The notes below the pieces were generated by a model. That model did no database searches. It was not told the DNA's origin and saw only the letters and a program-made list of their open reading frames with translations. A stretch of DNA of 64,000 nucleotides from Candidatus Acidiferrales bacterium (GTDB lineage Bacteria; Verrucomicrobiota; Verrucomicrobiia; Limisphaerales; UBA11358), in NCBI GenBank assembly GCA_035499615.1, contig DATJYM010000273.1:434-64433 (forward strand). Direction: 5' to 3'. Below are positions 850 through 62,862 of the stretch, piece by piece. The translations under genes were made by a program, and so were the position numbers. Within the stretch, counting starts at the first letter, position 1, and each line of letters starts with the position of its first letter.

Positions 850-1488
850 TTATCCTTTAACATGTGACAATGTTTGCAGTTTAGAGGCCTTAATGATGGC
901 GCGCACTTTGGCAGGGTCTTTCCGGCCCGGTGATGATTCCGCTCCGCTGGAAACATCCACGCCGAAGGGTTGAACCTGCCGGATCGCTTCGCCGACATTT
1001 TCGGGCGTCAGACCCCCGGCCAGAAAAACCGGTTTGCCCAGCTTTGGCACCTCCGCCGCCAGGGTCCAGTTGAATTTTTCGCCGGTTCCTCCGAACGCGT
1101 CGGATGCATAACCGTCCAGCAGCCACGCGTCGGTCCGATACTTCAGCAATTCCTTGAGCGACCCGGCGTCGCGGACGCGAAAGGCCTTCATACTCATCAG
1201 CCCGAACTGTGTGCAAAATTCCGGCGGCTCATCCCCATGAAATTGAAGCAGGTTCAGGCCGCATTCGCCGATGGCACGCCGGACCAGCTCTTCGGGGGGG
1301 TTCACAAAGACGCCGACGCGCAGGGTAAACGGCGGCAAGGACCGGCTGATTTCCGACGCCGTTTTTGTCGGAACAAACCGCGGGCTTTTCTCATAAAAAT
1401 TGAATCCCAGAGCGTCCGCGCCCGCCTCGACGGCGACCAGCGCGTCCGGCAGATTCGTGATACCGCAAATTTTGACCCGCGTGCTCAT
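850..1488 (-). CDS. trpF: phosphoribosylanthranilate isomerase
   Basis: 212-aa ORF with ATG start. N-terminal VKICGIT motif and overall PRAI-like sequence (GADALGFNF, FLAGGL). Confidence 0.85.
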   Translation of the reverse strand: MSTRVKICGITNLPDALVAVEAGADALGFNFYEKSPRFVPTKTASEISRSLPPFTLRVGVFVNPPEELVRRAIGECGLNLLQFHGDEPPEFCTQFGLMSMKAFRVRDAGSLKELLKYRTDAWLLDGYASDAFGGTGEKFNWTLAAEVPKLGKPVFLAGGLTPENVGEAIRQVQPFGVDVSSGAESSPGRKDPAKVRAIIKASKLQTLSHVKG

Positions 1489-1490
1489 TT

Positions 1491-1562
1491 TCGATTTACA
1501 ATTTTCGATTTACGATTCATCTGGCAAACCGGCTCGTAAATCGTAAATCGTAAATCGTAAAT
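1491..1562. repeat. inverted 7-nt-period arrays (ATTTACG / CGTAAAT) forming a hairpin
   Basis: Left arm 1491-1517 is tcgatttacaattttcgatttacgatt. Right arm 1535-1562 is four copies of cgtaaat. A 12-bp perfect pairing cgatttacgatt/aatcgtaaatcg is possible in several registers. Confidence 0.9.
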
Positions 1563-1568
1563 TGCCAA

Positions 1569-3620
1569 TCAATGAACAAAATGGCTGACGGTCTGATACA
1601 CGACAAACGCGCAGACATAGGCCAGGCCGGTCATATAAGCGATCTGGAACAAGGGCCATTTCCAGCCGCCCGTTTCGCGGCGCATGACGGCCGTGGTGGA
1701 AAGACATTGCGCGGCCAGGATGTAAAACACCAGCAGGCTGGCGCAGGTGGCGGTGGTGAACATGGGTGTACCGTCAGAACGAGCCGCTCGGCGCAGCGAA
1801 TCGTAAAGCGACGCGCTATGATGCTCGGCGGCGTCCTGGCCGACGCCGTAAACGATGGCCAGCGTGGAAACGATGACCTCGCGCGCGGCGAACGAACTGA
1901 TGATGCCGATGCCGATCTGCCAGTCGTAGCCGAGCGGTTTCAGCACCGGCTCCAGTAAACGGCCCAGCTTGCCGGCGGCGGAGTTTTGCAGCGAGTTTTG
2001 CGCTGAAAGATGGTCGGCGTCGGCGTGAAGTTCCGCGGCTTTCTGCGTGTCACCGGATTTTTCCAGTTGCACGGCCTGGGCCGTCAGCGCGACGGCGGCG
2101 GGCGGGGGCGTGGATTTTGGGTAATGCGAAAGCGCCCAAAGCACGAGCGAGACCACCAAGATGATGGTGCCCGCCTGTTTCACAAAGATTTTCGCGCGGT
2201 CAAACGTGTGCAACAGCGCCGAGCGCAGGCCGGGCAGGCGATACGGCGGCAGTTCAATCAGCAAGGGCCGGCTGCCGCCCGGCAAAATGGTGCGGTTGAA
2301 CACGACCGCCGACAGCACCGCCGCCAGGGCGCCGGTCGCGTAGGCCGCCGTGAAAACCAGGGCGGCTTTGAGTGGCGAATGCGGAAACAGCAGCGCGGTA
2401 ACCATGGCGTAAACGGGAATCCGCGCCGAACAGGTCAGCAGCGGCGTCACCAGGATGGTGACCAGCCGGTCGCGCGGATTTTCGATGACGCGTGCGGACA
2501 TGATGGCAGGAATGGCACAGGCGTGTGCCGAGAGCATCGGTACGAACGCCTTGCCCGGCAATCCGAGCCGGCGCATGATCTTGTCCATCACCAGCGCCGC
2601 ACGCGACAGATAGCCGGTGTCTTCCAGCAGCGACAGCGCGAAAAACAGAATGCAGATCTGCGGCAGGAACACCAGCACGCCGCCGACGCCGCCGATGACG
2701 CCGTTGACCAGCAGGCTTTGCCAGTCGCCCGGCGGTGTGTGCGCCGCAATCCAGGCGCCGCCGGTGCTGAACAGGCGGCTGATGAGACCCATCGGAATCT
2801 CCGCGGCCCAGAAAATCAGCGCGAACAACAGAAGCATGACGATTTGAAAAACGACGACACCCGCGACGGGGTGCGTCAAAAAGTCGTCGAGTTTTTCCGT
2901 CCGGACCGAACGCCGCGCCGCGGCCGCGTCCATCACCTTCGTCGAAATCTGTTCGGTCCATTCGTAGCGAGCCTGATAGGGACAACCGCTGCAACCCAGC
3001 GCGCAGGCGGGCTTGGTGTGCGCAACGGGGTTCGCGGTCTTGCCGGTCATGAGCCGCGCCATCTCGGTCTTGAGCTCGCCGATCCCCATGCCGGTGCGCG
3101 CCGAAATGGGGACCACGGAACACCCGAGTTCGGCGCGAAGCTTCGCAACGTCAATCCGGATACCGTCGCGCCGGGCCGTGTCCATCATGTTCAGCGCCAC
3201 GACGACGGGACAATCCAGTTCGAGCACCTGGCTGACGAGAAACAGGTTCCGTTCGAGGTTGGTAGCGTCCACGACGACCAGTGCGGCATTGGGTGCGGAG
3301 TGGCTGTCCAGCCGGCCATGCAGGGCGTCGCTCGCGATTTTTTCCTCCGGCGAAGAGCTTTCCAGGCTGTAAAGCCCGGGCAAGTCCACCACGACCATCT
3401 GGTGGTCGCCAAGGTGCGCGCGTCCGACCCGGCGCTCGACGGTGGTGCCGGGAAAATTCGCGGTCTTGGCACGCAGGCCGGTCAACGCATTGAACAGGGT
3501 GGTCTTGCCGGCATTGGGATTGCCGACCAGCGCGAGCGTAAAGGCGTGATGCGGCAAAACAACGGTCTGACCCTCGTCGCCACAGGATGCCCCGAACCCG
3601 AATTTAAGGGAATCACTCAT
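1569..3620 (-). CDS. feoB: ferrous iron transporter B
   Basis: 683 aa. N-terminal G-domain P-loop LVGNPNAGKTTLFNALTG followed by a long polytopic membrane region. Confidence 0.92.
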   Translation of the reverse strand: MSDSLKFGFGASCGDEGQTVVLPHHAFTLALVGNPNAGKTTLFNALTGLRAKTANFPGTTVERRVGRAHLGDHQMVVVDLPGLYSLESSSPEEKIASDALHGRLDSHSAPNAALVVVDATNLERNLFLVSQVLELDCPVVVALNMMDTARRDGIRIDVAKLRAELGCSVVPISARTGMGIGELKTEMARLMTGKTANPVAHTKPACALGCSGCPYQARYEWTEQISTKVMDAAAARRSVRTEKLDDFLTHPVAGVVVFQIVMLLLFALIFWAAEIPMGLISRLFSTGGAWIAAHTPPGDWQSLLVNGVIGGVGGVLVFLPQICILFFALSLLEDTGYLSRAALVMDKIMRRLGLPGKAFVPMLSAHACAIPAIMSARVIENPRDRLVTILVTPLLTCSARIPVYAMVTALLFPHSPLKAALVFTAAYATGALAAVLSAVVFNRTILPGGSRPLLIELPPYRLPGLRSALLHTFDRAKIFVKQAGTIILVVSLVLWALSHYPKSTPPPAAVALTAQAVQLEKSGDTQKAAELHADADHLSAQNSLQNSAAGKLGRLLEPVLKPLGYDWQIGIGIISSFAAREVIVSTLAIVYGVGQDAAEHHSASLYDSLRRAARSDGTPMFTTATCASLLVFYILAAQCLSTTAVMRRETGGWKWPLFQIAYMTGLAYVCAFVVYQTVSHFVH

Positions 3621-6606: not shown

Positions 6607-6668
6607 TGGTGCTGACCCCGTGTCCTCGGGATATCACGGTGAGTCGTCGTTGCCAAAATCCTGCCGGG

Positions 6669-6710
6669 GCGCAACTTGACGAGGAGGTGGCGCAACTTGA
6701 CGAGGAGGTC
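6669..6710 (+). repeat. tandem 21-bp duplication
   Basis: gcgcaacttgacgaggaggtg (6669-6689) is followed directly by gcgcaacttgacgaggaggtc (6690-6710), 20/21 identical. Each unit holds ttgac and gaggagg. Confidence 0.95.
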
Positions 6711-6731
6711 TATGACTGACACCTTGACTGC

Positions 6732-9250: not shown

Positions 9251-10888
9251 ATGACAAACAATCAGGTTTCACCCGGGCGGTATGTTTTGGCCATGATGAT
9301 TGTCGCGACACTGTTCGGACAGCCTCACGCGTTGATGGCAGCGGGCGGGGACACACTCTCAACGGCGCCCGCCGCGCCGGACCGGGTGATCACCGTGGAT
9401 TTGAACGCCGTCCAAGGGCCGCTGGACACTTCTTTTAAGGAATGCATTGGCGCCGGCAGGGCCAACGAAGGGCTGCGGGCGGATTGGCAGGATCAGTTGC
9501 GCGAGGCGCAACGCGAGTGCGGCTTCAAGTATATCCGCATGCACGGACTGCTCACCGATGACATGGGCGTTTACAAGGAAGACGCGCACGGCAACCCCGC
9601 CTACAACTGGCAATACATTGACCGGCTTTACGACTTCCTGCTCAGCATCAACATGAAACCGTTCGTCGAACTTTCGTTCATGCCCAAGGACCTGGCCAGC
9701 GGCAGCCGAACCGTTTTCTGGTGGAAGGGTAATGTCACCCCGCCCAAATCCTATGACAAATGGGCCGACTTGATCCGCCATCTGGTGACCCACTTCCAGG
9801 AGCGCTATGGACAGGACGAGGTGAAAACCTGGTACTTTGAAGTTTGGAATGAACCCGACTTGCATAACGGCTTCTGGTCCGGCACGCGGGAGGATTATTT
9901 CAAGCTCTATGACGCCACTGCCCGGGCCGTCAAAAGCGTTTCGCCGGATTACCGCGTCGGCGGCCCGGCCACGGCCATGGGCCAGTGGGACGAATCATTC
10001 ATCAACTATTGTTACACCAACCACGTGCCGCTCGACTTTGTTTCCTCGCACAATTATGGAGTCAAAAGCGGGTATTTGGATGAAACCGGCCAGCGCGGAA
10101 CGGTGATTGATCCCGATCCCAATTCCGTGGTGGGCCGGATGATCAACGAGCGGAAGATGATTGATCGTTCCCCGATGCCCGGCCTGCCGTTGCATTTTAC
10201 CGAGTGGAGTTCGTCCTACACGCCCACCGATTTCATTCACGATACCTACCAGCAGGCGGCCTTCATCCTCAGCAAAGTCAAAGCCGCCTATCGGTCGGTG
10301 GACTCGATGTCTTACTGGGTCTTCACCGACATTTTCGAAGAGAACGGCCCGCGGATGACTCCATTCCACGGTGGTTTTGGTTTGATTAACTACGAGGGTT
10401 TGAAAAAACCGGCCTTTTACGCTTTCAAATTCCTGAACGAACTGGGGACAACCGAACTTGTCAATGCCGACCCGGCGTCCTGGGTCTGCAAAAGCCCGGA
10501 CAATTCCGTCCAGGCCTTGTTTTGGAACTATACGCCCATCGTGCCGCCAGCGGGAGAGAACGATCAACAGTTCTATAAAAACGAGATTCCGGCCAAGGAC
10601 GTTGGCCGGGTGGTGCTCAACCTTACCAACCTGCCCGCCGGAAGCTACAGTCTGGAGATTTACCAGACCGGTTATCACGCCAACGATGTTTATACCCGCT
10701 ATCTTGACATGGGCTCGCCGTCGCAATTGACGCCGACCCAGGTCGAAATTCTGCGCCAACAAAGCAGCGGCGACCCTGAATCGGTGGAAACCATCCGGAT
10801 TGAAACCGGCAAGCCGTTCACGCGCACGTTCTCCCTGCGGCAGAATGACGTTTACTTCGTCAGACTTCTGCCGTTGGAAATCAAGTAA
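9251..10888 (+). CDS. glycoside hydrolase family 39-like (beta-xylosidase-type)
   Basis: Acid/base motif YFEVWNEPDL and nucleophile motif LHFTEWSSSY. Start trimmed to MTNNQ, which is followed by a signal-peptide-like VLAMMIVATLFGQPHALMA. Confidence 0.8.
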   Translation: MTNNQVSPGRYVLAMMIVATLFGQPHALMAAGGDTLSTAPAAPDRVITVDLNAVQGPLDTSFKECIGAGRANEGLRADWQDQLREAQRECGFKYIRMHGLLTDDMGVYKEDAHGNPAYNWQYIDRLYDFLLSINMKPFVELSFMPKDLASGSRTVFWWKGNVTPPKSYDKWADLIRHLVTHFQERYGQDEVKTWYFEVWNEPDLHNGFWSGTREDYFKLYDATARAVKSVSPDYRVGGPATAMGQWDESFINYCYTNHVPLDFVSSHNYGVKSGYLDETGQRGTVIDPDPNSVVGRMINERKMIDRSPMPGLPLHFTEWSSSYTPTDFIHDTYQQAAFILSKVKAAYRSVDSMSYWVFTDIFEENGPRMTPFHGGFGLINYEGLKKPAFYAFKFLNELGTTELVNADPASWVCKSPDNSVQALFWNYTPIVPPAGENDQQFYKNEIPAKDVGRVVLNLTNLPAGSYSLEIYQTGYHANDVYTRYLDMGSPSQLTPTQVEILRQQSSGDPESVETIRIETGKPFTRTFSLRQNDVYFVRLLPLEIK

Positions 10889-16554: not shown

Positions 16555-17035
16555 ACAGTCCGCTGTCCCGGGTGAAGCCGCCGCCGCCTTCTCCGCTGCC
16601 CATGAAATCGCCCAGGACGTCACCCATGTCGGCTTCGATTCTTTCCGGGTCCTCACCGGCTTCAAGCCGTTTGATGGCCACGTCCAGTTCCTTGGGAACA
16701 GACCCCGGCGGCATGAGATTTTTCATTTTTTTCATCATGTGGGCCATGTGCCGGGGATTATTCTCGTCCATGTGTTCCATGTCGCGTTCGAGTTCCATCA
16801 TGGCGCGCTCGACGCGCGGATCGTCCATGTCCGGCATCGGCGATCCGCCGGGTTCAGAGCCGGTTGAGGCGGCGGGCTCGGCCAGTTTGCGGGTCGTGGC
16901 AAACCGGCTGACCTGCTTGGACATTTTTTTGTTGCCGCACTTCGGGCAGACGGGCAGCCGCCCGGGGGCGACGCGCTTGGAGAGGAAGCTGAAAATCCTC
17001 CGGCACTTCGGGCAGGCAAATTCGTAAATCGGCAT
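16544..17035 (-). CDS. FmdB-family zinc-ribbon protein with a Met/His-rich and acidic C-terminal extension
   Basis: N-terminus MPIYEFACPKC...CPKCG matches the CxxC-CxxC FmdB signature. It is followed by MMELERDMEHMDENNPRHMAHMMKKMKNLM. Confidence 0.75.
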   Translation of the reverse strand: MPIYEFACPKCRRIFSFLSKRVAPGRLPVCPKCGNKKMSKQVSRFATTRKLAEPAASTGSEPGGSPMPDMDDPRVERAMMELERDMEHMDENNPRHMAHMMKKMKNLMPPGSVPKELDVAIKRLEAGEDPERIEADMGDVLGDFMGSGEGGGGFTRDSGLYDY

Positions 17036-17134
17036 TTCGATTTACGATTTACGATTTACGATTTACGCACGCCAGAAAAAAAGCGAGCCTCCGGAAACTC
17101 GGAGGCCCGTCAATCGTATATCGTAAATCGCAAA
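17036..17134. repeat. inverted 7-nt-period arrays (CGATTTA x4 / CGTAAAT-like) bracketing the korB terminator
   Basis: Left arm 17038-17067 is cgatttacgatttacgatttacgatttacg. Right arm 17110-17134 is caatcgtatatcgtaaatcgcaaatc. An 11-bp perfect pairing is possible. Confidence 0.9.
17072..17108 (-). terminator. rho-independent terminator of korAB
   Basis: On the minus strand, the hairpin gcctccg-agtttc-cggaggc is followed by tcgcttttttt. Confidence 0.8.
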
Positions 17135-18103
17135 TCACTTCATCTTGTCGAAATTCTTCTGAAGAATCTGCCAGTCCTTCAAGCCTTTGACCTTTTCCAT
17201 CATGCCGCGCTGGATTTCCGCCTCCTTGGCGTTTTTGGTCGGCTTGTTGTTTTTGTAAAAAATACCGAAGTAACCGGGGAAATCCGCTCCGGCCAGTTTG
17301 TAAGCGGCCAGCTCATCGGTCACGTCGTGATCCTTCGGGACTTCGTTGAACACACCGCCTTTGCGCGGATTGGCGGCGTCGAACGCGCCTTCGTAAAATT
17401 CCACGCACTCGCTCAGGCATTCCACGAAGCCGAAACCGTCGTGGTCCATCGCGGCTTCCATCATCGCCAGGACGTGGTTCGGATTCGTGGACGTGGTGCG
17501 GGCGACAAAGGTGGCGCCGGCGGCAACGGCCTGTTTCATCGGGTTGATGGGATAATCCACCGCGCCCCACGGATCGGTCTTGCTCTTGAACCCGAGCGGC
17601 GATGTTGGCGAGGTCTGTTTCTTGGTCAGCCCATAAACCCAGTTGTCCATGACCACGTAGGTCATCTTGATGTTTTTCCGCGCGGTATGATTGAAATGAT
17701 TGCCGCCAATGGAAAACGCATCGCCGTCGCCGCCGAAAACGAACACGTGCAGATCCGGCCGCGAAAGCGAAATGCCCGTGGCGAACGGCAGCGCGCGCCC
17801 ATGAATGTAATGCACACCGTGCGCCTGCACAAAATACGGAAACCGGCTTGAGCAACCGATGCCCGCGACGGTCGTGATATTCTCATGCCATAGTTTGCGC
17901 TTTTCGATGAGCTTGAAATACAACGCGAGCACCGAAAAATCGCCGCAGCCGGGGCACCACGTCGGGTGATCGGCAGCGATTTCCTTTTTCGTCAGACCCT
18001 TGCGTTCGACAACCGGCGGTGCCGCAGCGGGGGCCGGGGTGGCGACGGGCACAGCCGCACGCATGGGGTTTTCGACAATCGTTTCGTTCATAACATCCTT
18101 CAA
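17135..18103 (-). CDS. korB: 2-oxoacid:ferredoxin oxidoreductase beta subunit
   Basis: 322 aa. Contains CPGCGDFSVL and the TPP-binding motif VFGGDGDAFSIGGNH. Confidence 0.9.
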   Translation of the reverse strand: MKDVMNETIVENPMRAAVPVATPAPAAAPPVVERKGLTKKEIAADHPTWCPGCGDFSVLALYFKLIEKRKLWHENITTVAGIGCSSRFPYFVQAHGVHYIHGRALPFATGISLSRPDLHVFVFGGDGDAFSIGGNHFNHTARKNIKMTYVVMDNWVYGLTKKQTSPTSPLGFKSKTDPWGAVDYPINPMKQAVAAGATFVARTTSTNPNHVLAMMEAAMDHDGFGFVECLSECVEFYEGAFDAANPRKGGVFNEVPKDHDVTDELAAYKLAGADFPGYFGIFYKNNKPTKNAKEAEIQRGMMEKVKGLKDWQILQKNFDKMK

Positions 18104-21100: not shown

Positions 21101-21184
21101 TGGTGCGCGCGAGAGGACTTGAACCTCCAACCCTTACGGGACCAGATCCTAAGTCTGGCGCGTCTGCCATTCCGCCACGCGCGC
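21101..21184 (-). tRNA. tRNA-Leu (anticodon UAG), CCA encoded
   Basis: The reverse complement reads GCGCGCGTGGCGGAATGGCAGACGCGCCAGACTTAGGATCTGGTCCCGTAAGGGTTGGAGGTTCAAGTCCTCTCGCGCGCACCA. It folds as a cloverleaf with a long variable arm and anticodon loop CTTAGGA. Confidence 0.95.
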
Positions 21185-28150: not shown

Positions 28151-28380
28151 AGCAGTTCCACTTTTCCTATGGCCCGGACATGCTTGTCGGCGGGTGGGCG
28201 GGACATCCCTGTCCCATGTTACGCCCGTACGAAAGTGGCGACTGTCTGCCGTTGCGCCGCAGCGAGGTTTTGGCCTGCCGCGAAGATGAAAAATCCGGCA
28301 GAATCCCGCTACGTGGGACGGGAAATCCTGTGCTACGATCTGACTGTAAACCCTCCAATGTCCGCGCGCGTGTCGCGGAC

Positions 28381-29388
28381 TCAGGCGGCGCCGCGCCGGA
28401 GCCGGTCGGCGATGGCCAGCCATTCCGGCAAATCCGGCGGCGCTTCCACCACAATCCATTCCGCTCCCGCCTCATCGCTCCGATGCAGCTCTCCGTATAT
28501 CGCCCGCGCGAATGCCTCCGCGTCATGCGGAATCATACACACGTTGGCGAAATTTTCGGCGGAGGGAATTTTAGTGTGAGCAATGACGTGACACGTGAGA
28601 CGTGAGACGTGAGACGTGACAAGACGCACAAGCAAATCAGCGTCATCCTTCCAATCCAGCACCAATAATTTTGCCTTCGGCGAGTAATGTCTTTGCAAAA
28701 GGCCTGGACTCCGAAGCATTGAATGTTGAATGTCGAAAGTTGAATGTTGAATATTGCCCGTTACTGCCGCCAGTGATTCGGCGTGGATCATGCCCGGACG
28801 CAAAATGTCCGGCGGTGAAACCGTTAAATCCAGCACCGTGGATTCGATGCCGACCTGTGACTGGCCGCCATCAACAATCAGGGAAATTTTATGTCCGAGT
28901 TGATTGCGCACGTGCCCGGCATTGGTCGGTGAAACCCGGCCCGACAGATTCGCGCTGGGCGCGGCGAGCGGGAAGCCGCATTCGCGAATCACCGCTTGAA
29001 TCAGCGGATGGCCGGGCCAGCGCACGCCGACCGTGGCACCGCCGGCAGTCACATTGTCGGGAATCTCTTTTGCTCTTGGCAGGACGAGCGTGAGCGGACC
29101 GGGCCAGAACGCCTTCGCCAGATTATCAGCGTTGGCCGGCCAACTCGCCACGCACCGTTTCGCCATCTCCACACTGGCGACATGAACAATGATTGGATTA
29201 TTTGCCGGCCGGCCTTTGATTTGGAAAATATTTGCGATCGCGTTCTCATCCCAGGTGTTAGCGGCAAGGCCGTAAACCGTTTCTGTCGGCAAGGCCACCA
29301 CTTCACCCGCGCGCAGCCGGTCCGCCGCGCGTTTCACGGCGGCTTGAAAAAGCGCCGGCGTGTGCGTCGATAAAACTTCAGCGATCAC
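28381..29388 (-). CDS. L-threonylcarbamoyladenylate synthase (Sua5/TsaC family, YrdC plus Sua5 domains)
   Basis: Motifs VALPTETVYGLAAN and APSANLSGRVSPT. 335 aa. Contains two repeat-derived in-frame segments. Confidence 0.88.
   Translation of the reverse strand: MIAEVLSTHTPALFQAAVKRAADRLRAGEVVALPTETVYGLAANTWDENAIANIFQIKGRPANNPIIVHVASVEMAKRCVASWPANADNLAKAFWPGPLTLVLPRAKEIPDNVTAGGATVGVRWPGHPLIQAVIRECGFPLAAPSANLSGRVSPTNAGHVRNQLGHKISLIVDGGQSQVGIESTVLDLTVSPPDILRPGMIHAESLAAVTGNIQHSTFDIQHSMLRSPGLLQRHYSPKAKLLVLDWKDDADLLVRLVTSHVSRLTCHVIAHTKIPSAENFANVCMIPHDAEAFARAIYGELHRSDEAGAEWIVVEAPPDLPEWLAIADRLRRGAA
28585..28627. repeat. 7-nt-period array (GACGTGA-type, ~5 units) inside the sua5 coding sequence
   Basis: The sequence gacgtga cacgtga gacgtga gacgtga gacgtga caagacg encodes RLVTSHVSRLTCHV in the gene frame. 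Confidence 0.9.
28719..28756. repeat. 7-nt-period array (TTGAATG-type, 5 units) inside the sua5 coding sequence
   Basis: The sequence ttgaatg ttgaatg tcgaaag ttgaatg ttgaata encodes NIQHSTFDIQHSM in the gene frame. Confidence 0.9.
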
Positions 29389-29391
29389 GCG

Positions 29392-30660
29392 CTATTCATA
29401 GCGCAAGGCGTCAATCGGGTCGAGTTTGGAAGCTTTCCAGGCAGGATAAAATCCGGAGATGATGCCGGCGACGGCACTGGAGACGGACGCAATAGCAATC
29501 CAGGTGACCGGTGTCAACGTTGGCCAGCTGGCAAACTGGGACAAGAAATTAATTGGCATTCCGAGTTGGGTGAAAATAGCAGCGACCAATTTCACTGTGG
29601 GTTGCGCGCTCACACCGCAAACAATGCCAATCAGCCCGCCGATGATGCTGATGGTGACGGCTTCAATCAAAAATTGAACCAAAATGTCGTGAGCGCGCGC
29701 ACCGACGGCCATACGGATGCCGATCTCGCGCGTGCGTTCGGTGACGCTGACGAGCATGATATTCATGATGCCGATACCTCCGACCAGCAATGACACGGCC
29801 GCGACACCCGCCAGCAGAAAGGACATGGTTGTTGCCGTGCTGGTGGCAAATTCGGCGATTTCCTGCTGCGTGCGGATCGTAAAATCATCATCCTTGCCCG
29901 GCGTGATGCGATGTCGCTGGCGCAACAAATCGGTGATTTGTTGTTGAACCGATGACAGCATGTTCGCGCTGGCGGCCTGGACATTAATCGTGCGCAGGGT
30001 CGTCCCGCCCAGGACGCGCTTCATCGCGCTGGTGTAGGGAACGACCACGATATCATCCTGATCCTGGCCTTGCAGGGAAAGTCCTTTCGGAATCAGCACG
30101 CCGCCCACGATGAACGGCACATTCTTAATGCGGATGACCTTGCCCAGGGGATCCTCATTTCCGTAAAGCTGTGTGGCGACGGTCTTGCCGATGACGGCAA
30201 TTTTGCCCGCGGTGTGGACATCCTGATCCCCAAACGACGATCCTTCAGTGAAGGGCCACCGGCGCAAATCGAAATAATCCGCGCCCTCACCCAAAATTGT
30301 CGTGTACCAGTCCTGGTCGCCGGCGGCCACTTGGGCGGCGCCCCGCACCTCGGGGCTGACGATGGTAACACCTGAGACCTCGGTCTTGATGGCTTCGGCG
30401 TCATCAAGCGTCAGTGTGCCGGCGCTGCCCCAGCCGGTGCGTACGCCTTTGCTCGTGAAATTGCCCGACCAGACCAAAACCACATTCTGGCCGAGGCTGG
30501 CGATTTGTCCTTCCACCTGCGATTTGGCGCCACTGGTGATGCTGACCGACGCGATCACCGCCCCGACGCCGAAAATCATGCCGAGCATGGTCAGCAACGT
30601 GCGCATTTTATTCCGGCGCAAAGCGCGCGCGGCCATTCGGAGCGCGGCAAACAGTCTCAT
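29392..30660 (-). CDS. ABC transporter permease (MacB/FtsX-like)
   Basis: 422 aa with an N-terminal transmembrane helix, a large periplasmic domain and a C-terminal FtsX-type 3-TM bundle. It overlaps the upstream ATPase by 4 nt. Confidence 0.85.
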   Translation of the reverse strand: MRLFAALRMAARALRRNKMRTLLTMLGMIFGVGAVIASVSITSGAKSQVEGQIASLGQNVVLVWSGNFTSKGVRTGWGSAGTLTLDDAEAIKTEVSGVTIVSPEVRGAAQVAAGDQDWYTTILGEGADYFDLRRWPFTEGSSFGDQDVHTAGKIAVIGKTVATQLYGNEDPLGKVIRIKNVPFIVGGVLIPKGLSLQGQDQDDIVVVPYTSAMKRVLGGTTLRTINVQAASANMLSSVQQQITDLLRQRHRITPGKDDDFTIRTQQEIAEFATSTATTMSFLLAGVAAVSLLVGGIGIMNIMLVSVTERTREIGIRMAVGARAHDILVQFLIEAVTISIIGGLIGIVCGVSAQPTVKLVAAIFTQLGMPINFLSQFASWPTLTPVTWIAIASVSSAVAGIISGFYPAWKASKLDPIDALRYE

Positions 30661-32922: not shown

Positions 32923-33957
32923 GTGCTTGAAACACTGATTTCCCAACTTGCCGGCTTGCAACCCCTCACCGAGCCGCAAGTTCGCGCCGCGGTAAAAGAA
33001 CTGGTTGACGAAAAAATCCCGGTGACGGCCAAAGCCGATTTTTTGGCCGCCTTGGCGCAAAAAGGTGAAACGCCGGACGAAATCACTGCGTTTGCCCGCG
33101 AATTGCGCGAAAAATCCATCCCGCCGCCGCTCGATGCCGCAACCAGATCGCGGGAAATCCTCGACGTGGTCGGCACCGGCGGTGACCGTTTGAGCACGTT
33201 CAATATCTCCACCACCGTTGCCATTCTGTGCGCCGCCGCGGGTGTTACCGTGGCCAAACACGGCAATCGCGCCGTGACGTCGTCGGTTGGCAGCGCGGAC
33301 GTGGTGGAAGAACTCGGTATCAAGGTTGACTTGTCACCGGCGGGGGCGGCCCGCGCGCTGCGCGAACACGGTTTTGCGTTTTTCTTCGCTCCGCATTTTC
33401 ATCCGGCCTTCAAACACATCGCGCCGGCCCGGAAATTGTGCGCCGAGCGGGGCCAGCGGACCATTTTCAACATCCTCGGTCCGCTGCTCAATCCGGCCCG
33501 CCCGTCGGCGATGCTCGTCGGCGTGCCGCGCCCGGAACTGTGCGAGCCGATGGCACGAGCGTTGCAGTCGCTCGGCGTGCGGCGCGGCATGGTCGTCTGC
33601 GGATCGGCTGCCGGGAAAAGGTTGGACGAACTTTCAACGCTGGGGACAAGTGACGTCGCGGAATTTTATCAGGAACGCGGTTTTTCAGTTTCGAGTTTGT
33701 CACCGGAACTTTTTCCGCGGCAGCCGGCAACACTGGCGGATTTGCGCGGAGGCGACAAGGTTGTGAATGCCGAAATCATCCGCTGTATTTTCCGTGGCGA
33801 GGAACGCGGCCCCAAACGCGACGCGGTTCTCCTCAACGGCGCTGCCGCACTGTTTGTGTCCGGCCAGACAAAATCATTGGCCGAAGGCTGGGATTTGGCG
33901 GCTCGGACAATTGACAGCGGGCGGGCGCAGGCGAAGCTGGAGGAATTGACGAGTTAG
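32923..33957 (+). CDS. trpD: anthranilate phosphoribosyltransferase
   Basis: GTG start. Motifs VVGTGGDRLSTFNIST and KHGNRAVTSSVGSADV. Confidence 0.92.
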   Translation: MLETLISQLAGLQPLTEPQVRAAVKELVDEKIPVTAKADFLAALAQKGETPDEITAFARELREKSIPPPLDAATRSREILDVVGTGGDRLSTFNISTTVAILCAAAGVTVAKHGNRAVTSSVGSADVVEELGIKVDLSPAGAARALREHGFAFFFAPHFHPAFKHIAPARKLCAERGQRTIFNILGPLLNPARPSAMLVGVPRPELCEPMARALQSLGVRRGMVVCGSAAGKRLDELSTLGTSDVAEFYQERGFSVSSLSPELFPRQPATLADLRGGDKVVNAEIIRCIFRGEERGPKRDAVLLNGAAALFVSGQTKSLAEGWDLAARTIDSGRAQAKLEELTS

Positions 33958-34685
33958 TTCGCGGGCGTGGTGCTTTCCGGCGATTCTTCCTCGGCCGCCG
34001 CCGCCGAGGCGTCGGTTTCGGCCACTTCCGGTTCTTTCAAGGAAGCGTAATGCAGCCCCAGATTATGCTGCGCGGTCTTGTCACCCTGACGCGCGGCGCG
34101 GATGAACCATTTCATGGCTTCCTGGGGATTTTGTTCAACGCCGCGTCCTGTCTGGTAACACAGGCCGAGATTGCATTGCGCCGGCGCACACTCCTGTTCG
34201 GCGGCCGCGCGATACCATTTGACCGCTTCCGTGAAGTTTTGCGGCACGACCTGGCCGGTTTCATAAAAAACGCCAAGGTTGAATTGCGCCGCGGGATAAC
34301 CGCGTTCCGCCGCTTCACGATACCATTTGACCGCTTCCGCAAAATTTTGCGGCACGCCCTGGCCGGTTTCGTAGAGCACTCCCAGATTGAATTGCGCCGC
34401 CGGATCGCTTTGTTCGGCGGCCTCCCGCAGCCATTTGGCCGCCTCGCCGAATTCCTGCGGCACACCCGTGCCGTGCAAATAACATACGCCCAGATAGCAC
34501 TGTGCGACCGGGTCGCCTTGCTCCGCCGCGCGGCGAAACCACGTTACCGCGTCCTGATTATCCGGCGCTACTCCCTGGCCGGTTTGATAGCAAACGCCCA
34601 AATAGCATTGCGCCTGCGGGTCGCCCTCGTGGGCGGCTTGCCGCATCGCTTCAAACGAATCCCATGTTCGACGGCTGCTCGACAT
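33954..34685 (-). CDS. Sel1-like (TPR-family) repeat protein
   Basis: Five or more repeats of AQ.NLG..Y..G.GVPQN...A.KW.R.AAEQG. Its stop codon overlaps the trpD stop (shared TTAG). The start is uncertain (34685 or 34739). Confidence 0.8.
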   Translation of the reverse strand: MSSSRRTWDSFEAMRQAAHEGDPQAQCYLGVCYQTGQGVAPDNQDAVTWFRRAAEQGDPVAQCYLGVCYLHGTGVPQEFGEAAKWLREAAEQSDPAAQFNLGVLYETGQGVPQNFAEAVKWYREAAERGYPAAQFNLGVFYETGQVVPQNFTEAVKWYRAAAEQECAPAQCNLGLCYQTGRGVEQNPQEAMKWFIRAARQGDKTAQHNLGLHYASLKEPEVAETDASAAAAEEESPESTTPAN

Positions 34686-34813
34686 CCCAAACTCAGATGT
34701 TAAGGCACTTTTTGTGCCGCACCTATCATAAATCGTCACCGGGCAAATTCAAGGCGTGAATTAGTCCCGCATTTTCACTTCCGTTCCATCAGTTGGCCTG
34801 CTACAAACTTTTC

Positions 34814-36356: not shown

Positions 36357-37436
36357 TCAGCCGTTTAACGCTTTTAGCCTTTCCTCCAGGTCATGCGTCA
36401 TCAGCGGGTCAATCAGCGGGTCAAGGTCGCCATCAATGAAGTTCGCCAGATTGTAAAGCGTCACCTCGATGCGATGGTCAGTGACGCGGTTTTGCGGAAA
36501 ATTGTAGGTGCGGATTTTTTCGTTGCGTTCTCCCGTGCCGACCTGTGATTTCCGATGGGCGGCATATTTTGCGTTTTCCTCGGCGATTTTCGCTTCCAGC
36601 AAACGTGAGCGCAGAACGGTCATGGCCCTGGCCCGGTTCTTCTGTTGCGAACGTTCGTCCGCGCAGCGCACAATCAATCCGCTGGGTTTATGCTGTATTT
36701 GCACGGCCGAGTCGGTGGTGTTCACGCCCTGGCCGCCCTTCCCGGATGCGCGGCAGACGTTGATCTCGACATCTTCCGGCTTGATCTCGATGTCCACCTC
36801 CTGCGCCTCCGGCAGCACCGCCACGGTGCTGGTGCTGGTGTGGATGCGCCCCTGGGCCTCGGTTGCCGGCACGCGCTGGACGCGGTGCACCCCGCTCTCG
36901 TATTTGAGCCGCTTGTAAACGTCCGCACCGTTGATCTGGAAGATTATTTCCTTGAATCCACCAAGGTCGGACGGATTGGAATCCAGCGTTTCCACCTTCC
37001 AGCCGCGAGCTTCGGCGTAACGGCAATACATCCGGTAGAGGTCGGCGGAGAACAGCGCGGATTCCGAGCCGCCCGCGCCGGCGCGGATTTCGATGATGGT
37101 GTTGCGCGAGTCGGTCGGATCCGGTGGTACCAGGCCGTACTGGATCTGCTGCGAAAGCTTTTTCTCATCCGCTTCCAGCCGGACGATGTCCTCCCTGGCC
37201 ATCAATGCCAGTTCGGAGTCCGTCGGTTCGGATTTCAGCATTACGCGGTTTTGTTCCAAATCAGCCAGCGTTTTGAGATAACGGTCACCATGCGCGACCA
37301 GCTCCTTGAGCCGGGCATATTCACGGGACAATTCCTGCGCGCGTTGCTGATTGTCGAACACCTTGGGATCACTCAACGCGATCTCGACCTCGCCCAAGCG
37401 CTTACGGAATTTTTCAATGTGCGGTGACAGATTCAT
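36357..37436 (-). CDS. prfA: peptide chain release factor 1
   Basis: GGQ motif GKGGQGVNTTDSAV and the RF1-specific PAT tripeptide in RVPATEAQGRIHTS. Confidence 0.93.
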   Translation of the reverse strand: MNLSPHIEKFRKRLGEVEIALSDPKVFDNQQRAQELSREYARLKELVAHGDRYLKTLADLEQNRVMLKSEPTDSELALMAREDIVRLEADEKKLSQQIQYGLVPPDPTDSRNTIIEIRAGAGGSESALFSADLYRMYCRYAEARGWKVETLDSNPSDLGGFKEIIFQINGADVYKRLKYESGVHRVQRVPATEAQGRIHTSTSTVAVLPEAQEVDIEIKPEDVEINVCRASGKGGQGVNTTDSAVQIQHKPSGLIVRCADERSQQKNRARAMTVLRSRLLEAKIAEENAKYAAHRKSQVGTGERNEKIRTYNFPQNRVTDHRIEVTLYNLANFIDGDLDPLIDPLMTHDLEERLKALNG

Positions 37437-37437
37437 T

Positions 37438-37510
37438 TGCGATTTACGATATACAGTTTACGACCGGATTAGCGCGCGTTGCGTCAATCGCAAATCGTAT
37501 ATCGTAAATC
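37438..37510. repeat. inverted 7-nt-period arrays (GATTTAC-type) forming a hairpin abutting the prfA start
   Basis: gatttacgatatac (37441-37454) pairs perfectly with gtatatcgtaaatc (37497-37510). Confidence 0.9.
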
Positions 37511-38070: not shown

Positions 38071-38144
38071 TGTCCGATGGTGTAATGGTAACACAGCGCC
38101 CTTTGGAGGCGTTATTCTTGGTTCGAATCCAAGTCGGACAGCCA
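38071..38144 (+). tRNA. tRNA-Gln (anticodon UUG), CCA encoded
   Basis: TGTCCGATGGTGTAATGGTAACACAGCGCCCTTTGGAGGCGTTATTCTTGGTTCGAATCCAAGTCGGACAGCCA. Acceptor stem TGTCCGA/TCGGACA, anticodon loop CTTTGGA. Confidence 0.95.
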
Positions 38145-44902: not shown

Positions 44903-45255
44903 TGGTGGAGGCGGCGGGAGTTGAACCCGCGTCCCCGGCAAACAAACCAGCCGCGACTACATGCTTAGTCCGGAGAATTTTTTCTGCTGTGCGATGGCGT
45001 CCGGACTCGAATCGCACTGCCTAGTCCGCATGGAATTTTCTCGGCCAACAGCGCGCGGTCTCCGCCGTCAACCATGCCTGCTATGGCGTTCGTCCGGCGT
45101 AGCAGGTGTCCACCGGCGAACGTCGCAGCACTTTAGGCCGCGAGAGCTAATTCTTCGTTAGCTGTTTTGTTTGATGCGATGATTAACGAGGCCAACGCAT
45201 CGTCCTCGGCATGCCGCCTCTGGCGCATTCACTGGGTCGAAACCGGTGCGCCCCC
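44903..45255 (-). ncRNA. ssrA: tmRNA (SsrA), one-piece, CCA encoded; tag ORF at 45133-45162 encodes ANEELALAA
   Basis: 5' end GGGGGCGCACCGGTTTCGAC and 3' end GGTTCAACTCCCGCCGCCTCCACCA, a tRNA-Ala-like acceptor with a G3:U pair. Also GCATGCCGAGG...GGCCTCGT, and the resume frame GCT AAC GAA GAA TTA GCT CTC GCG GCC TAA. Confidence 0.93.
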
Positions 45256-47595: not shown

Positions 47596-47793
47596 TCAGT
47601 CTCCGTCCGATTCAAAAATCTCTTCGATGGATAGCTTGAACAAGCGCGCCGCCTTGAACGCCAGCTGCAAGCTTGGATCGTATCTCTCGGTCTCGATGGC
47701 GTTCACGGTCTGACGCGAGACGCCAAGCTGGTCCGCTAGATCGGATTGTGACCATTGCCTGGCCGCACGCAGTTCGCGCAACTTGTTTTTCAT
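47596..47793 (-). CDS. XRE-family helix-turn-helix transcriptional regulator (65 aa)
   Basis: MKNKLRELRAARQWSQSDLADQLGVSRQTVNAIETERYDPSLQLAFKAARLF. ATG at 47793, overlapping the stop of the upstream membrane gene by 4 nt. Confidence 0.85.
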   Translation of the reverse strand: MKNKLRELRAARQWSQSDLADQLGVSRQTVNAIETERYDPSLQLAFKAARLFKLSIEEIFESDGD

Positions 47794-48230
47794 CTGTAGC
47801 GGCGATTGAAAATGGTCTGACCCAGGATGTAAAAGCAAACCACCAGCCAGATAATCACAAAGCCGGCCGTCGCGTGGAAATGGGCAGGTATCACGCCTGC
47901 CGTAACCAGGAAATGCAGAGCGGCAACGACAAAGAGGGTCGCTACGGTCGCGAATAGACAGGCGGCGATAGTGATGCGACGATGCAATTCGTCCATGCCA
48001 CGGACCCATCCCGCCACGCTCCGCACCCAGAGCAAACTCGCCACCAGCGGAACCAGGGCGATGACCGTCCGTAAGGCAACCGGCCAGTCTGTGTGATGCG
48101 GGAGCAACCAGCATTCGCCCGCGAAAGAGCTCAGTACGGCCGCCCAACACCAGCCGTTCACTTTCATTTCCGTCCGGAAGGAATAATATTTCCCGGGCGC
48201 AAGTTCTTCAGGGGTGTTCGGTCTATTCAT
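47790..48230 (-). CDS. small integral membrane protein co-transcribed with the XRE regulator
   Basis: 146 aa with about 4 hydrophobic helices. Overlaps the regulator gene through ATGA. Confidence 0.65.
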   Translation of the reverse strand: MNRPNTPEELAPGKYYSFRTEMKVNGWCWAAVLSSFAGECWLLPHHTDWPVALRTVIALVPLVASLLWVRSVAGWVRGMDELHRRITIAACLFATVATLFVVAALHFLVTAGVIPAHFHATAGFVIIWLVVCFYILGQTIFNRRYR

Positions 48231-48237
48231 ACGGGGT

Positions 48238-48281
48238 AATGTAAAGCATAATTTACATTATGTCAAGCATTCTTTACATTG
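48238..48281. promoter_or_regulatory. two adjacent 22-bp palindromic operator-like sites upstream of the membrane-XRE operon
   Basis: AATGTAAA-gcataa-TTTACATT (48238-48259), then TATGTCAA-gcattc-TTTACATT (48259-48280). The first site begins 8 nt upstream of the ATG at 48230. Confidence 0.55.
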
Positions 48282-53370: not shown

Positions 53371-53384
53371 CGGGCGGATTCTAA

Positions 53385-53417
53385 GATCAAAGTTCGAAGT
53401 TCAAAGTTCAAAATGTT
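53385..53417. repeat. 7-nt-period array (AAGTTCA/AAGTTCG) in the pyrE leader
   Basis: In mRNA sense it reads ttgaact ttgaact tcgaact ttgatct tagaatc, then cgcccg ATG. Confidence 0.8.
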
Positions 53418-54818: not shown

Positions 54819-56570
54819 GTGCTCCCGCACCGACATATTGAACTCCGCCTGCAACAGGCCGTCCGCGCCGTCCTGCCGGATGCCGACATAGCCGCAGTGC
54901 TGGTTCGTCCATGTCCGGACCCGAAATTCGGCGATTACCAGAGTAACGCGCTGATGTCGCTGGCCAAGGCAAGAAAGTCAAATCCGCGGCAATTGGCCGC
55001 CGACGTTCTGGCGAAGCTGGATGTATCTGAAATTTGTGAAAGTGTTGAAATTGCCGGTGCCGGTTTTCTGAATTTTCGGCTCAAGAATTCCATGCTCGCG
55101 CAGACGCTCAAGTCCGCGGCGCGCGGCGAGCATCTTTTCTTCGACAAGGCGGCGCAGCCGAAAACCATTGTCATTGATTTCAGCTCACCGAATGTGGCCA
55201 AGCCGATGCACGTCGGACATATCCGCTCGACCATTCTGGGCGACTGCCTGGCCCGCACCTTGCGGCTGCTCGGGCACCAGGTCATTACCGACAATCACAT
55301 CGGCGACTGGGGCCTGCAATTTGGCTTGCTGGTCGTCGGTTGGAAGAAGCACCTGAATCGCGAGGCGCTTGGGGTGGAACCGCTGGGTGAAATGGAGCGG
55401 CTTTACAAGCTGGCGTTTGCCGCCAGCCAGGCCGACGCAAAAGTCCTGGAGGAAGCGCGGCAGGAGCTCGTCAAATTGCAGCGTCGTGACCCGGAAAATC
55501 TCGGCATCTGGGGGGAAATGCGCGATCTTTCCTTGCGCCAATTCAGTTCCGTTTACGACCGCCTGGGGGTGAGATTCGATCATACTTACGGAGAAAGTTC
55601 CTACAATGCCCGTCTGGAATTCCTGGTTCAGGATTTGATCGCCCAGGGCATCGCACGCGAAAGCGAAGGCGCGATTGTGGTTTTCTTCGACGATATTCCC
55701 CAGTTATCCAAACAACCGCTCATCATCCGGAAGAGTGACGGCGGGTTCAATTATGCCACCACCGATCTGGCGACGCTCGAATTCCGACTCGATTCGTGGA
55801 AGCCCAATGAAATCATTTACGTCACCGACGGCCGTCAGCAATTGCATTTCCAGCAGGTCTTCGCCGCGTTCCAAAAATGGCGACAGGCCAATTCCGAGCT
55901 CCGCAGTTCGAACCATGGACTCAAATTGGCCCATGTGTGGTTCGGCTCAATCCTGGGTGAGGACGGCAAGCCGTTCAAAACCCGCAGCGGCGAAACCGTG
56001 AAACTGACGGACCTGTTGGATGAAGCCGAAGAGCGCGCCTTTAGAATCGTGTCTGAAAAGAACCCCGATTTGCCGGAGGCGCAGCGGCGCGAGATCGCGC
56101 GCGTGGTCGGACTGGGCGCGGTGAAATACGCCGACCTGCTGCCGAACCGGCAGAGCGATTACGTGTTCAGCTGGGACAAGATGCTGGCACTCAACGGCAA
56201 TACCGCTCCGTATCTCCAGTACGCCTACACGCGGATCAAAAGCATTTTCCGGAAGGTGGCGGAAACATCGAACATCGAACGTCGAACAACGAACATTGAA
56301 TTGACCGAACCCGAAGAAATTGTGCTGGCGAAGCATTTACTGAATTTTGGGCTGACGCTGGAAGCCGCGGCCGAGGAATACCGCCCGAATTTTCTCTGCA
56401 ATTATCTTTTCGAACTGGCCGGAAAATTCACCGCGTTCTATGAAAATTGCCCGGTGCTCAAAGCCGATGACGCCACCCGGGCCGGCCGGCTCGCGTTATG
56501 TGATTTGACCGCGCGCGTTCTCCAACAGGGACTGGAAGCCCTCGGCATCGAAACGGTGGAACAGATGTGA
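54819..56570 (+). CDS. argS: arginine--tRNA ligase
   Basis: 583 aa with GTG start. HIGH-type motif SSPNVAKPMHVGHIRSTILGD and a C-terminal DALR-type domain. Confidence 0.93.
   Translation: MLPHRHIELRLQQAVRAVLPDADIAAVLVRPCPDPKFGDYQSNALMSLAKARKSNPRQLAADVLAKLDVSEICESVEIAGAGFLNFRLKNSMLAQTLKSAARGEHLFFDKAAQPKTIVIDFSSPNVAKPMHVGHIRSTILGDCLARTLRLLGHQVITDNHIGDWGLQFGLLVVGWKKHLNREALGVEPLGEMERLYKLAFAASQADAKVLEEARQELVKLQRRDPENLGIWGEMRDLSLRQFSSVYDRLGVRFDHTYGESSYNARLEFLVQDLIAQGIARESEGAIVVFFDDIPQLSKQPLIIRKSDGGFNYATTDLATLEFRLDSWKPNEIIYVTDGRQQLHFQQVFAAFQKWRQANSELRSSNHGLKLAHVWFGSILGEDGKPFKTRSGETVKLTDLLDEAEERAFRIVSEKNPDLPEAQRREIARVVGLGAVKYADLLPNRQSDYVFSWDKMLALNGNTAPYLQYAYTRIKSIFRKVAETSNIERRTTNIELTEPEEIVLAKHLLNFGLTLEAAAEEYRPNFLCNYLFELAGKFTAFYENCPVLKADDATRAGRLALCDLTARVLQQGLEALGIETVEQM
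56264..56303. repeat. 7-nt-period array (AACATCG-type, 5 units) inside the argS coding sequence
   Basis: The sequence aacatcg aacatcg aacgtcg aacaacg aacattg encodes ETSNIERRTTNIELT in frame. Confidence 0.9.
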
Positions 56571-62787: not shown

Positions 62788-62862
62788 GCGCGGTTAGCTC
62801 AGCGGTAGAGCACCAGTATCACACACTGGGGGTCGCAGGTTCAAAACCTGCACCGCGCACCA
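62788..62862 (+). tRNA. tRNA-Val (anticodon CAC), CCA encoded
   Basis: GCGCGGTTAGCTCAGCGGTAGAGCACCAGTATCACACACTGGGGGTCGCAGGTTCAAAACCTGCACCGCGCACCA. Anticodon loop ATCACAC. Confidence 0.95.

Follow-up and report, generated by a model that had tools for sequence, protein, structure and literature searches.

The Sua5 gene in a 64,000-nucleotide (nt) stretch of Candidatus Acidiferrales bacterium (Verrucomicrobiota, Limisphaerales; assembly GCA_035499615.1, contig DATJYM010000273.1, positions 434 to 64,433; hereafter the window) carries two in-frame arrays of 7-nt units, one in the linker that joins the protein's two domains and one within its C-terminal SUA5 domain. Relatives of this gene are periodic at the same two sites with different units, and we judge it probable (at about 0.68) that the arrays are long-lived heptanucleotide simple sequence repeats (SSRs), kept homogeneous by slippage or conversion, with reading frame and length acting as a filter. 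The gene and its arrays are located as follows.

28381..29388, minus strand: Sua5 / TsaC2 gene (L-threonylcarbamoyladenylate synthase; threonylcarbamoyl-AMP synthase), an open reading frame (ORF) of 335 amino acids (aa) that hosts both arrays.

28719..28756, minus strand: heptad array in the linker; its unit on the coding strand reads ACATTCA/ATTCAAC and occurs in about 5.4 copies; residues 211-224 (GNIQHSTFDIQHSM), found with Tandem Repeats Finder (TRF).

28585..28627, minus strand: heptad array in the SUA5 domain; its unit on the coding strand reads TCACGTC/GTCTCAC and occurs in about 5 copies, with one more that is degenerate; residues 254-268 (VRLVTSHVSRLTCHV), found with TRF.

The host ORF matches PF01300 (YrdC/TsaC-like) over residues 24-199 (E = 1.8e-62) and PF03481 (SUA5 domain) over residues 201-335 (E = 4.7e-19) and thus has the N-terminal YrdC/TsaC-like and C-terminal SUA5 domains of Sua5 / TsaC2. 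It scores 197 bits against the TIGR00057 equivalog model (cutoff 123), matches the Pyrococcus abyssi Sua5 (Pa-Sua5) structure in PDB (6F87, E = 3e-68), and has a total length that is usual for the family. The lid motifs are kept (P228-G229-L230, H234-Y235, and P237, at the residue numbers of Pa-Sua5) and are invariant in 30 relatives.

TRF places the linker array at 28719-28756 (period 7, 5.4 copies, 83% matches, unit TTGAATG) and the SUA5-domain array at 28585-28619 (period 7, 5.0 copies, 92% matches, unit GACGTGA), with a purity of 0.86 over 42 nt for the former and 0.97 over 35 nt for the latter. A sequence-only reading of the window had proposed two in-frame heptad arrays in this gene, in the linker and the C-terminal domain, and TRF, the ORF, Pfam, and residue arithmetic confirm it, the residue ranges 211-224 and 254-268 having been derived by coordinate arithmetic. 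Both arrays qualify as heptanucleotide SSRs, with at least four head-to-tail copies, beyond chance: 100 dinucleotide-preserving shuffles of the 64-kb window produced no array at threshold versus five observed, so they are not explained by chance. Five regions appear in the window at lag 7, and none at lag 6 or at lags 8 to 12. Both Sua5 arrays are present base for base in contigs from other samples (L092, L093, and L094) and are therefore not assembly artefacts. The reverse orientation of both units contains TGA, as read off the sequence, and only the present orientation can therefore sit in an ORF.

Comparison across relatives was based on a graded set of 87 Sua5 loci from metagenomes and genomes, including 35 relatives with at least 64% identity (the clade) and 36 orthologs with less than 58% identity (the outgroup); a scan of genome contigs gave only six useful loci. 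A protein set comprised 120 Sua5 relatives at 76-100% identity, the named ones belonging to Verrucomicrobiota, Verrucomicrobiia, or Limisphaerales. As a side observation, the named close relatives of both Sua5 and the arginyl-tRNA synthetase ArgS all carry one of these three labels; a contig with an identical Sua5 protein (P0001) is labelled Candidatus Acidoferrales/Acidiferrales (Acidobacteriota) and is probably mis-binned, and P0012, labelled Limnocylindrales, also looks mis-binned.

At both sites in the 35 clade members, the same base recurs with a frequency of 0.43-0.46 at lag 7 and 0.41-0.44 at lag 14, all other lags lying at 0.19-0.32, and the outgroup shows no signal at lag 7 (0.26-0.27). 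A gene-wide sliding profile rises specifically in the clade at exactly two places, residues ~212-224 and ~254-267; around residue 140 there is one more bump, which is raised in the outgroup too and lies within the invariant FPLAAPSAN motif. The periodicity at lags 7 and 14 is found at both sites in Verrucomicrobiia relatives down to ~65% protein identity. Clade loci hold 30 strict 7-nt arrays in 364 kb, compared with at most three for any other period from 5 to 11, a margin of at least 10-fold, and period 7 is over-represented relative to neighboring periods in the window as well as in these loci.

The position of the arrays is fixed and their sequence is not. Relatives carry more than 20 units other than ACATTCA and TCACGTC, including (purity in parentheses) AACATCC (0.97), ATTCAGG (1.00), GCGGAGT (0.94), ATGGCGG (0.93), and GGAACGC (0.91) in the linker and TTTCAAC (0.94), CCCTCAA (0.94), ATCACGC (0.93), AAATCGC (0.88), and ATTTCGA (0.88) at the C-terminal site. 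AACATTC, AACATCC, and AACATCG are common linker variants in which a single base is altered in every unit. At lag 7, bases within one array match more often (identity 0.55-0.61) than orthologs match each other when the same nucleotides are aligned (0.40-0.44). A rule shared by the units, such as "TCA-", was considered and judged not significant, each unit having 14 possible rotations and strands. The length of both segments is near-constant over ~200 relatives.

The encoded peptides, which are periodic at 7 aa, differ accordingly among the 120 relatives. Linker peptides include NIQHSTFNIQHS, NIQHPTSNIQHP, NIEHRTSNIEHR, VQSSKFKVQSS, VTSDKWQVTGK, and VRSAECGVRSG, and those at the C-terminal site include LVTRHLSPVTCH, LSTLNSQPSTCH, LSTFNFQLSTCF, IQNSKFKIEK, and IANRKSQ. 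A 7-aa peptide repeat needs a period of 21 nt only, so the periods of 7 and 14 nt, together with the unrelated peptides, show that it is the DNA that is repetitive. The proposal of a DNA-level origin rather than protein-level selection, already made from the sequence, is strongly supported by these two lags, by differing units at fixed sites, and by a one-unit variant between strains described below.

A third in-frame array lies in the arginyl-tRNA synthetase gene at 54819..56570 (Pfam PF03485, PF00750, and PF05746).

56264..56300, plus strand: ArgS in-frame heptad array, unit AACATCG, about 5.3 copies, found with TRF; residues ~482-494, close to where the DALR domain match begins.

In 120 ArgS relatives this site reads ETSNIEHRTSNIE, ETFNIQHSTFNIQ, ETSNIQHPTSNIQ, ESAIRNPQSAI, or DSRSSSLRIE, with peptide variants including NIEHRTSNIE, NIQHSTFNIQ, NIQHPTSNIQ, and AIRNPQSAI and at times with extra inserts of 7-27 aa. 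Arrays are present at the DNA level in relatives as well, with AATCCGC in 4.5 copies in L095 and AACATCC in 3.5 copies in L096. The ArgS array is an independent replicate of what is seen in Sua5.

With respect to the protein, the linker of Pa-Sua5 comprises residues 200-239, its non-conserved half is disordered in St-Sua5, and the SUA5 domain is without significant sequence conservation (Pichard-Kostuch 2018, PMC6004061). The same work defines the PG(M/L), HY, and conserved proline motifs of the lid, A225-A239, which is essential. The linker array corresponds to Pa-Sua5 residues ~210-224, i.e., the non-conserved half of the linker directly upstream of the lid. In array-free orthologs, the window at residues 212-224 is second in variability within Sua5 (entropy 2.89 versus a mean of 1.74), and windows within residues 245-270 rank third and fifth. 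Both arrays occupy the Sua5 stretches whose amino-acid sequence is least constrained. An AlphaFold2 (AF2) model, of which only the C-terminal domain was used (close homologs only were given as input and the whole-protein model is poor, with a mean predicted local distance difference test [pLDDT] score of 50), has residues 254-268 run from the last part of helix 249-258 through a loop into the beginning of strand 266-270, with pLDDT scores of 87-92.

Sua5 alleles of closely related strains differ abruptly at the arrays. L088 (10001-11011) and L090 (1567-2577) differ at 53 of 1,011 nt, 37 of these differences lying in positions 607-676, a patch of ~70 nt that takes in the array and ~30 nt of upstream flank, where most changes are synonymous, and that breaks off sharply on its 3' side where the array ends. 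The patch is a short tract imported from a diverged Sua5 allele. Likewise, P0053 and P0061 are 97.6% identical outside the arrays and have the C-terminal array in common, and their linker segments are 13% identical. Hypermutation internal to the array was considered for the abrupt linker difference between P0041/P0053 and P0043/P0045 and rejected, since the divergent tract runs ~30 nt into conserved flank, most of its changes there being synonymous, as recombination would leave them. L092 (2048-3055) is a mosaic relative to the window Sua5, with all 69 differences in the first 399 nt, and array types are only loosely clustered on a tree of the non-array columns. Short-tract homologous recombination between diverged Sua5 alleles seems to be common in these populations.

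Heptad arrays are present outside genes as well, where they take a different form.

1487..1570, minus strand: inverted heptad pair of the ATTTACG / CGTAAAT type in the feoB-trpF intergenic region; the 3' arm ends at the trpF AUG; RNA hairpin of -31.5 kcal/mol, z-score -5.9.

17034..17136, minus strand: intergenic inverted heptad pair (ATTTACG/CGTAAAT); the 3' arm ends 4 nt before the AUG of a zinc-ribbon gene; -52.8 kcal/mol, z-score -6.7.

37435..37510, no strand assigned: inverted heptad pair (ATTTACG/CGTAAAT) between the divergent starts of prfA and an unannotated ORF; RNA fold z-score -4.7.

53379..53412, no strand assigned: single heptad array, unit TTCAAAG, between a phosphoribosyltransferase start (53370, minus strand) and a plus-strand ATG, found with TRF.

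The 3' arms of the three intergenic pairs end 1-5 nt before a start codon, and the pair at 17034..17136 encloses a GC-rich stem followed by a U run resembling an intrinsic terminator; these hairpin pairs may be elements of translation or termination control. At the intergenic site in L096 that is orthologous to window positions 53379-53412, there is a pair of arrays (1104-1147 and 1221-1253) with the unit GTTTCAG / CTGAATY, so that a fixed position with a changing unit is found outside genes too. The Sua5 arrays have no inverted partner within 28200-29500 and do not pair with each other; their folds have z-scores of -1.3 and +0.7 relative to shuffles, compared with -4.7 to -6.7 for the intergenic pairs. 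Mutual pairing or pairing with a nearby inverted copy was therefore rejected, and the Sua5 arrays lack the inverted complementary arrays and stable hairpin that characterize the intergenic elements. The sequence-only reading had regarded the arrays in Sua5 as the same kind of DNA array as the intergenic hairpins; in the window this holds for the period and fails for the units, the inverted partner, and the folding. Two relatives, L017 and L027, have a C-terminal Sua5 array with the unit AAATCGC, one base from AAATCGT (a rotation of the CGTAAAT arm) and matching a CGCAAAT variant found in the intergenic arms of the window. At the Rfam gathering threshold, the whole window contains only a transfer-messenger RNA (tmRNA) and three tRNAs, and no family matches at the Sua5 arrays, ruling out a known RNA family there.

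These observations bear on the possibility that selection acts on the 7-nt periodicity itself, as an element of the nucleic acid, e.g., a unit-independent platform for an RNA- or single-stranded DNA-binding protein, a signal that pauses translation close to domain boundaries, or a hot spot of recombination, in which case arrays would be retained at fixed sites while the unit changes freely. Consistent with this, a high-purity period persists at the same two sites over deep divergence, domain junctions are close to the linker array of Sua5 as well as to the array of ArgS, the intergenic arrays are non-randomly placed, abutting start codons and forming hairpins, and the L088/L090 recombination tract ends exactly at the array. 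Against it, many clade members have decayed arrays (lag-7 identity 0.27-0.45) with the gene intact, no unit is conserved, the Sua5 arrays have neither RNA structure nor inverted partner nor Rfam match, and the C-terminal array is inside a domain and not at a boundary. We regard such selection as unlikely, if worth keeping in view. A broader version, to which we attach slightly less weight still, is that the periodicity is maintained by selection or by dedicated clade-specific machinery that generates or reads repeats: the usual substrate would be the intergenic hairpin pairs at start codons, serving translational or termination control, and the arrays in Sua5 and ArgS would be copies that are functional or are actively regenerated, such as signals for pausing or recombination close to domain junctions.

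Dedicated or mobile deposition, through templated synthesis of repeats or a mobile element that carries them, certain units and target sites being preferred, is very improbable. It would account for the recurrence of ATTTACG at three intergenic sites in the window, of AACATYS in both Sua5 and ArgS, and of AAATCGC in the Sua5 genes of L017 and L027 and in intergenic arms; it sits poorly with at least 20 different units, with the inheritance of arrays at orthologous positions, and with the fact that no flanking terminal repeats, target-site duplications, or associated gene were identified.

We observe that the array segments have counterparts in orthologs that lack arrays. The alignment with P. 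abyssi Sua5 (6F87) spans both sites with gaps of at most 2 residues, and the linker segment (Q210-226) has a mean length of 18.2 aa in the 35 clade members and of 18.2 aa in the 36 outgroup orthologs. The C-terminal segment (Q251-269) averages 19.4 aa in the clade versus 16.1 aa in the outgroup and stays within the outgroup range of 0-23, so that no net gain of residues is seen at either site when orthologs from outside the lineage are compared. Both segments had earlier been taken for lineage-specific insertions, with homologous residues in orthologs from unrelated phyla named as the observation that would speak against this, and archaeal and distant bacterial orthologs do have residues at both sites; the claim therefore fails by that criterion, and it was rejected on the conserved lengths and the 6F87 alignment. 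The arrays are not net insertions and overwrite sequence of equal length. A role for array DNA that entered surface loops of Sua5 by slippage expansion or as an element, adding residues that other phyla lack, is accordingly a very long shot, for which one can cite the restriction of the arrays to one Verrucomicrobiia clade, the ~3 aa by which the mean C-terminal segment exceeds that of the outgroup, and genuine extra DNA in some relatives, as set against the equal linker means, a C-terminal length inside the outgroup range, the near-gapless 6F87 alignment, and a total of 335 aa that is typical for the family.

Real length changes at the array sites do occur but are rare. The L035 linker (match 645-1709) has a 48-nt tandem duplication with ~4-5 AACGCGG units per copy, which lengthens the segment to 41 aa from the usual 17 aa and indicates that the linker can tolerate large expansion. 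In L012 (match 5929-6990), both arrays are split by in-frame non-heptad inserts of 27-36 nt, the C-terminal one being a 36-nt GC-rich palindrome (CCCCGTAAAGGGGCGTGGCCCCCACGGGGCCTTACGCCC, -22.5 kcal/mol) that resembles a small hairpin element of the repetitive extragenic palindrome (REP) or miniature inverted-repeat transposable element (MITE) type. P0110 has 10 extra residues.

Sua5 and ArgS serve core translation functions, and loss of ArgS is lethal. One natural Sua5 allele differs by exactly one unit: L091 (4987-5987, ena:ERZ27256499:k141_3084811, an independent sample) equals the window Sua5 except for the deletion of a single 7-nt unit in the C-terminal array, which frameshifts the gene into ORFs of 282 and 51 aa. 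The unit-number polymorphism among strains that the sequence-only reading suggested looking for thus exists, in a single case of whole-unit change. Assembly at k = 141 presumably would not collapse a 35-nt array, in which case the deletion should reflect real molecules, and the allele could be a natural null allele or population heterogeneity. A second candidate, L005 (~10830-10860), in which the Sua5 ORF stops early, was rejected as an array frameshift; the shift is at a CCCC homopolymer 3' of the array, and in this long-read metagenome-assembled genome the indel is most likely a sequencing error rather than repeat slippage.

A truncating allele in an otherwise identical strain is what a contingency (phase-variation) locus would produce if one-unit slippage toggled Sua5 off and on, and a 7-nt unit, not being a multiple of three, has the required frame effect; neuO, with its AAGACTC unit, operates in this way (PMC13001214). 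We nevertheless find this scarcely credible for Sua5. The arrays have ~5 units versus 3-53 in neuO, unit number is the same in four of five near-identical contigs, and length is constant over ~200 relatives, compared with 66% of neuO genomes in the OFF state, so frequent unit-number polymorphism with many OFF alleles is not what we see. Nor are Sua5 and ArgS, as core translation genes, dispensable or environment-facing; an OFF state would presumably be deleterious rather than adaptive. Least probable of all is selection on the 7-aa repeats (e.g., NIQHSTF) as a functional peptide motif, since, although similar peptides recur in many relatives and in ArgS, chemically unrelated ones stand at the same site (VTSDKWQ, VRSAECG, and FRIQDSG), the linker segment is entirely different between strains that are 97.6% identical elsewhere, and the DNA has the shorter periods that a peptide repeat does not need.

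The explanation that we favor, heptanucleotide SSRs under a length and frame filter, starts from period-7 DNA, diverse units at fixed sites, conserved length, array sites that coincide with variable segments, an allele that lacks a single unit, and a single recombination patch. The arrays would be generated and kept homogeneous by a process that acts on the DNA in a 7-nt register, such as replication slippage or misaligned repair or conversion within the array, slippage or conversion being the probable homogenizing mechanism. The arrays would have taken over the least-constrained stretches of Sua5, namely the linker's non-conserved N-terminal half and, in the poorly conserved SUA5 Rossmann domain, a helix-loop. 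They would be old and of common ancestry, as the shared positions among distant relatives suggest, with the unit sequence drifting and then being re-homogenized (concerted evolution) and short-patch homologous recombination moving whole array alleles between lineages. Selection would act as a filter only, requiring a unit that is stop-free in all three frames of the coding orientation and a length that is in frame and near ancestral; changes of one or two units would shift the frame, and the resulting null alleles would be purged. The repeats of 7 aa in the peptides would then be by-products and probably neutral.

Several observations weigh against this explanation. Slippage should vary the number of units, and yet length is near-constant over the ~200 relatives with one variant seen, so that homogenization would have to proceed without length change. 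The most variable outgroup window, residues 272-284, has no array in the clade. Of the 30 strict arrays in the clade loci, 21 are inside Sua5, far above the local background, and opportunistic colonization is therefore insufficient: inheritance or site preference is needed. Finally, AACATTC, AACATCC, and AACATCG recur in both the Sua5 linker and ArgS, a recurrence not predicted by pure local drift. A unit shared by Sua5 and ArgS within one genome, which would be a sign of ectopic conversion, was seen neither in the window (AACATTC versus AACATCG) nor in the one other likely same-contig pair, P0083/P0204. The near-absence of length variation at high purity, the concentration of arrays, and the recurrence of AACATYS in two genes leave some room for selection on the periodicity itself and less for dedicated or mobile deposition or for phase variation.

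Further features of the window lie away from Sua5 and ArgS.

44903-45255, minus strand: tmRNA gene (Rfam RF00023, 167 bits).

21104-21184, 38071-38141, and 62788-62859: three tRNA genes.

34164-34442: 108-nt tandem repeat (2.6 copies, 75% matches) inside ORF 33954..34739, minus strand, which probably encodes a repeated protein module.

48239-48280: two copies of a 21-nt direct repeat (ATGTAAAGCATAATTTACATT), A/T-rich and partly palindromic, between 47596..48150 (minus strand) and the 48214 GTG start region; it may be an operator or promoter element.

If the favored explanation holds, a repeat class that is normally kept out of coding sequence, 7 not being a multiple of 3, can persist for very long in essential genes, provided that the stretch is sequence-permissive, the unit is stop-free in three frames, and the length is constant. 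Two Sua5 sites and one ArgS site across dozens of lineages would form a natural replicated system for concerted evolution under reading-frame constraint, also usable for studying the mutational load on core genes (one frameshift allele was seen) and the shuffling of alleles by very short tracts. In practical terms, the arrays give Verrucomicrobiota metagenome-assembled genomes peptide patches that are hypervariable and genes that look split, and these can lead astray annotation, the alignment of orthologs, and sets of phylogenetic markers. The arrays also mark, independently, the freely varying parts of the Sua5 linker and SUA5 domain.

With respect to known Sua5 proteins, the window protein resembles Pa-Sua5 in having PG(M/L), HY, and P237 at identical residue numbers and resembles St-Sua5 in that its linker array occupies the segment that is disordered there; it differs in that, in the Verrucomicrobiia clade, a DNA repeat encodes the non-conserved half of the linker (PMC6004061). 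Heptanucleotide repeats are reported to be the most abundant class of long SSRs in many bacteria, with polymerase slippage as the proposed origin, and units that are multiples of three are those expected inside coding regions (Mrazek, Guo and Shah 2007, as cited in PMC4679880 and PMC4692102). As far as these two citing accounts describe them, prokaryotic heptanucleotide long SSRs are like the present arrays in their head-to-tail 7-nt units, a dominant period of 7, a mostly intergenic location, and a proposed origin in slippage, and the present arrays differ from that description in lying at fixed positions inside two essential genes, in an order-level clade, with unit turnover at constant length.

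Another related system is neuO of the E. coli K1 phage CUS-3, whose 5' AAGACTC array is likewise an in-frame heptanucleotide repeat translated in three frames, such that a one-unit change causes a frameshift and a full-length product needs a frame-keeping number of units (PMC13001214). In contrast to this accessory, phage-borne surface-modification gene with 3-53 units, which is phase-OFF in most genomes (66%), the Verrucomicrobiia arrays have ~5 units and nearly fixed length and lie mid-gene in core translation genes. The TAACTGA repeats of marine Beggiatoaceae and cyanobacteria (MacGregor 2015, PMC4679880) form genome-wide heptamer arrays directly upstream of starts, with rare copies inside ORFs that are translated into the 7-aa LSVISYQ; they consist of one dominant unit, related heptamers being rarely repeated, whereas here many units are found and the in-ORF arrays are positionally conserved among orthologs. 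The GGGNATC repeats of Xanthomonas and Nostoc and the cyanobacterial STRR heptamers (Rehm 2015, PMC4692102) are similar in being dispersed arrays of ~4 units within at most 50 bp of ORF starts or stops, and differ from the present case, with its non-G-tract units and two arrays in one essential ORF. None of the TAACTGA, GGGNATC, and STRR units as given in these two papers matches ACATTCA, TCACGTC, or the units of the relatives, and we found no paper that links heptamer repeats to Verrucomicrobiota in the literature collection searched. Arrays that keep their site and length and change their unit, inside essential translation genes and across a whole clade, appear to be a new behavior among heptanucleotide repeats.

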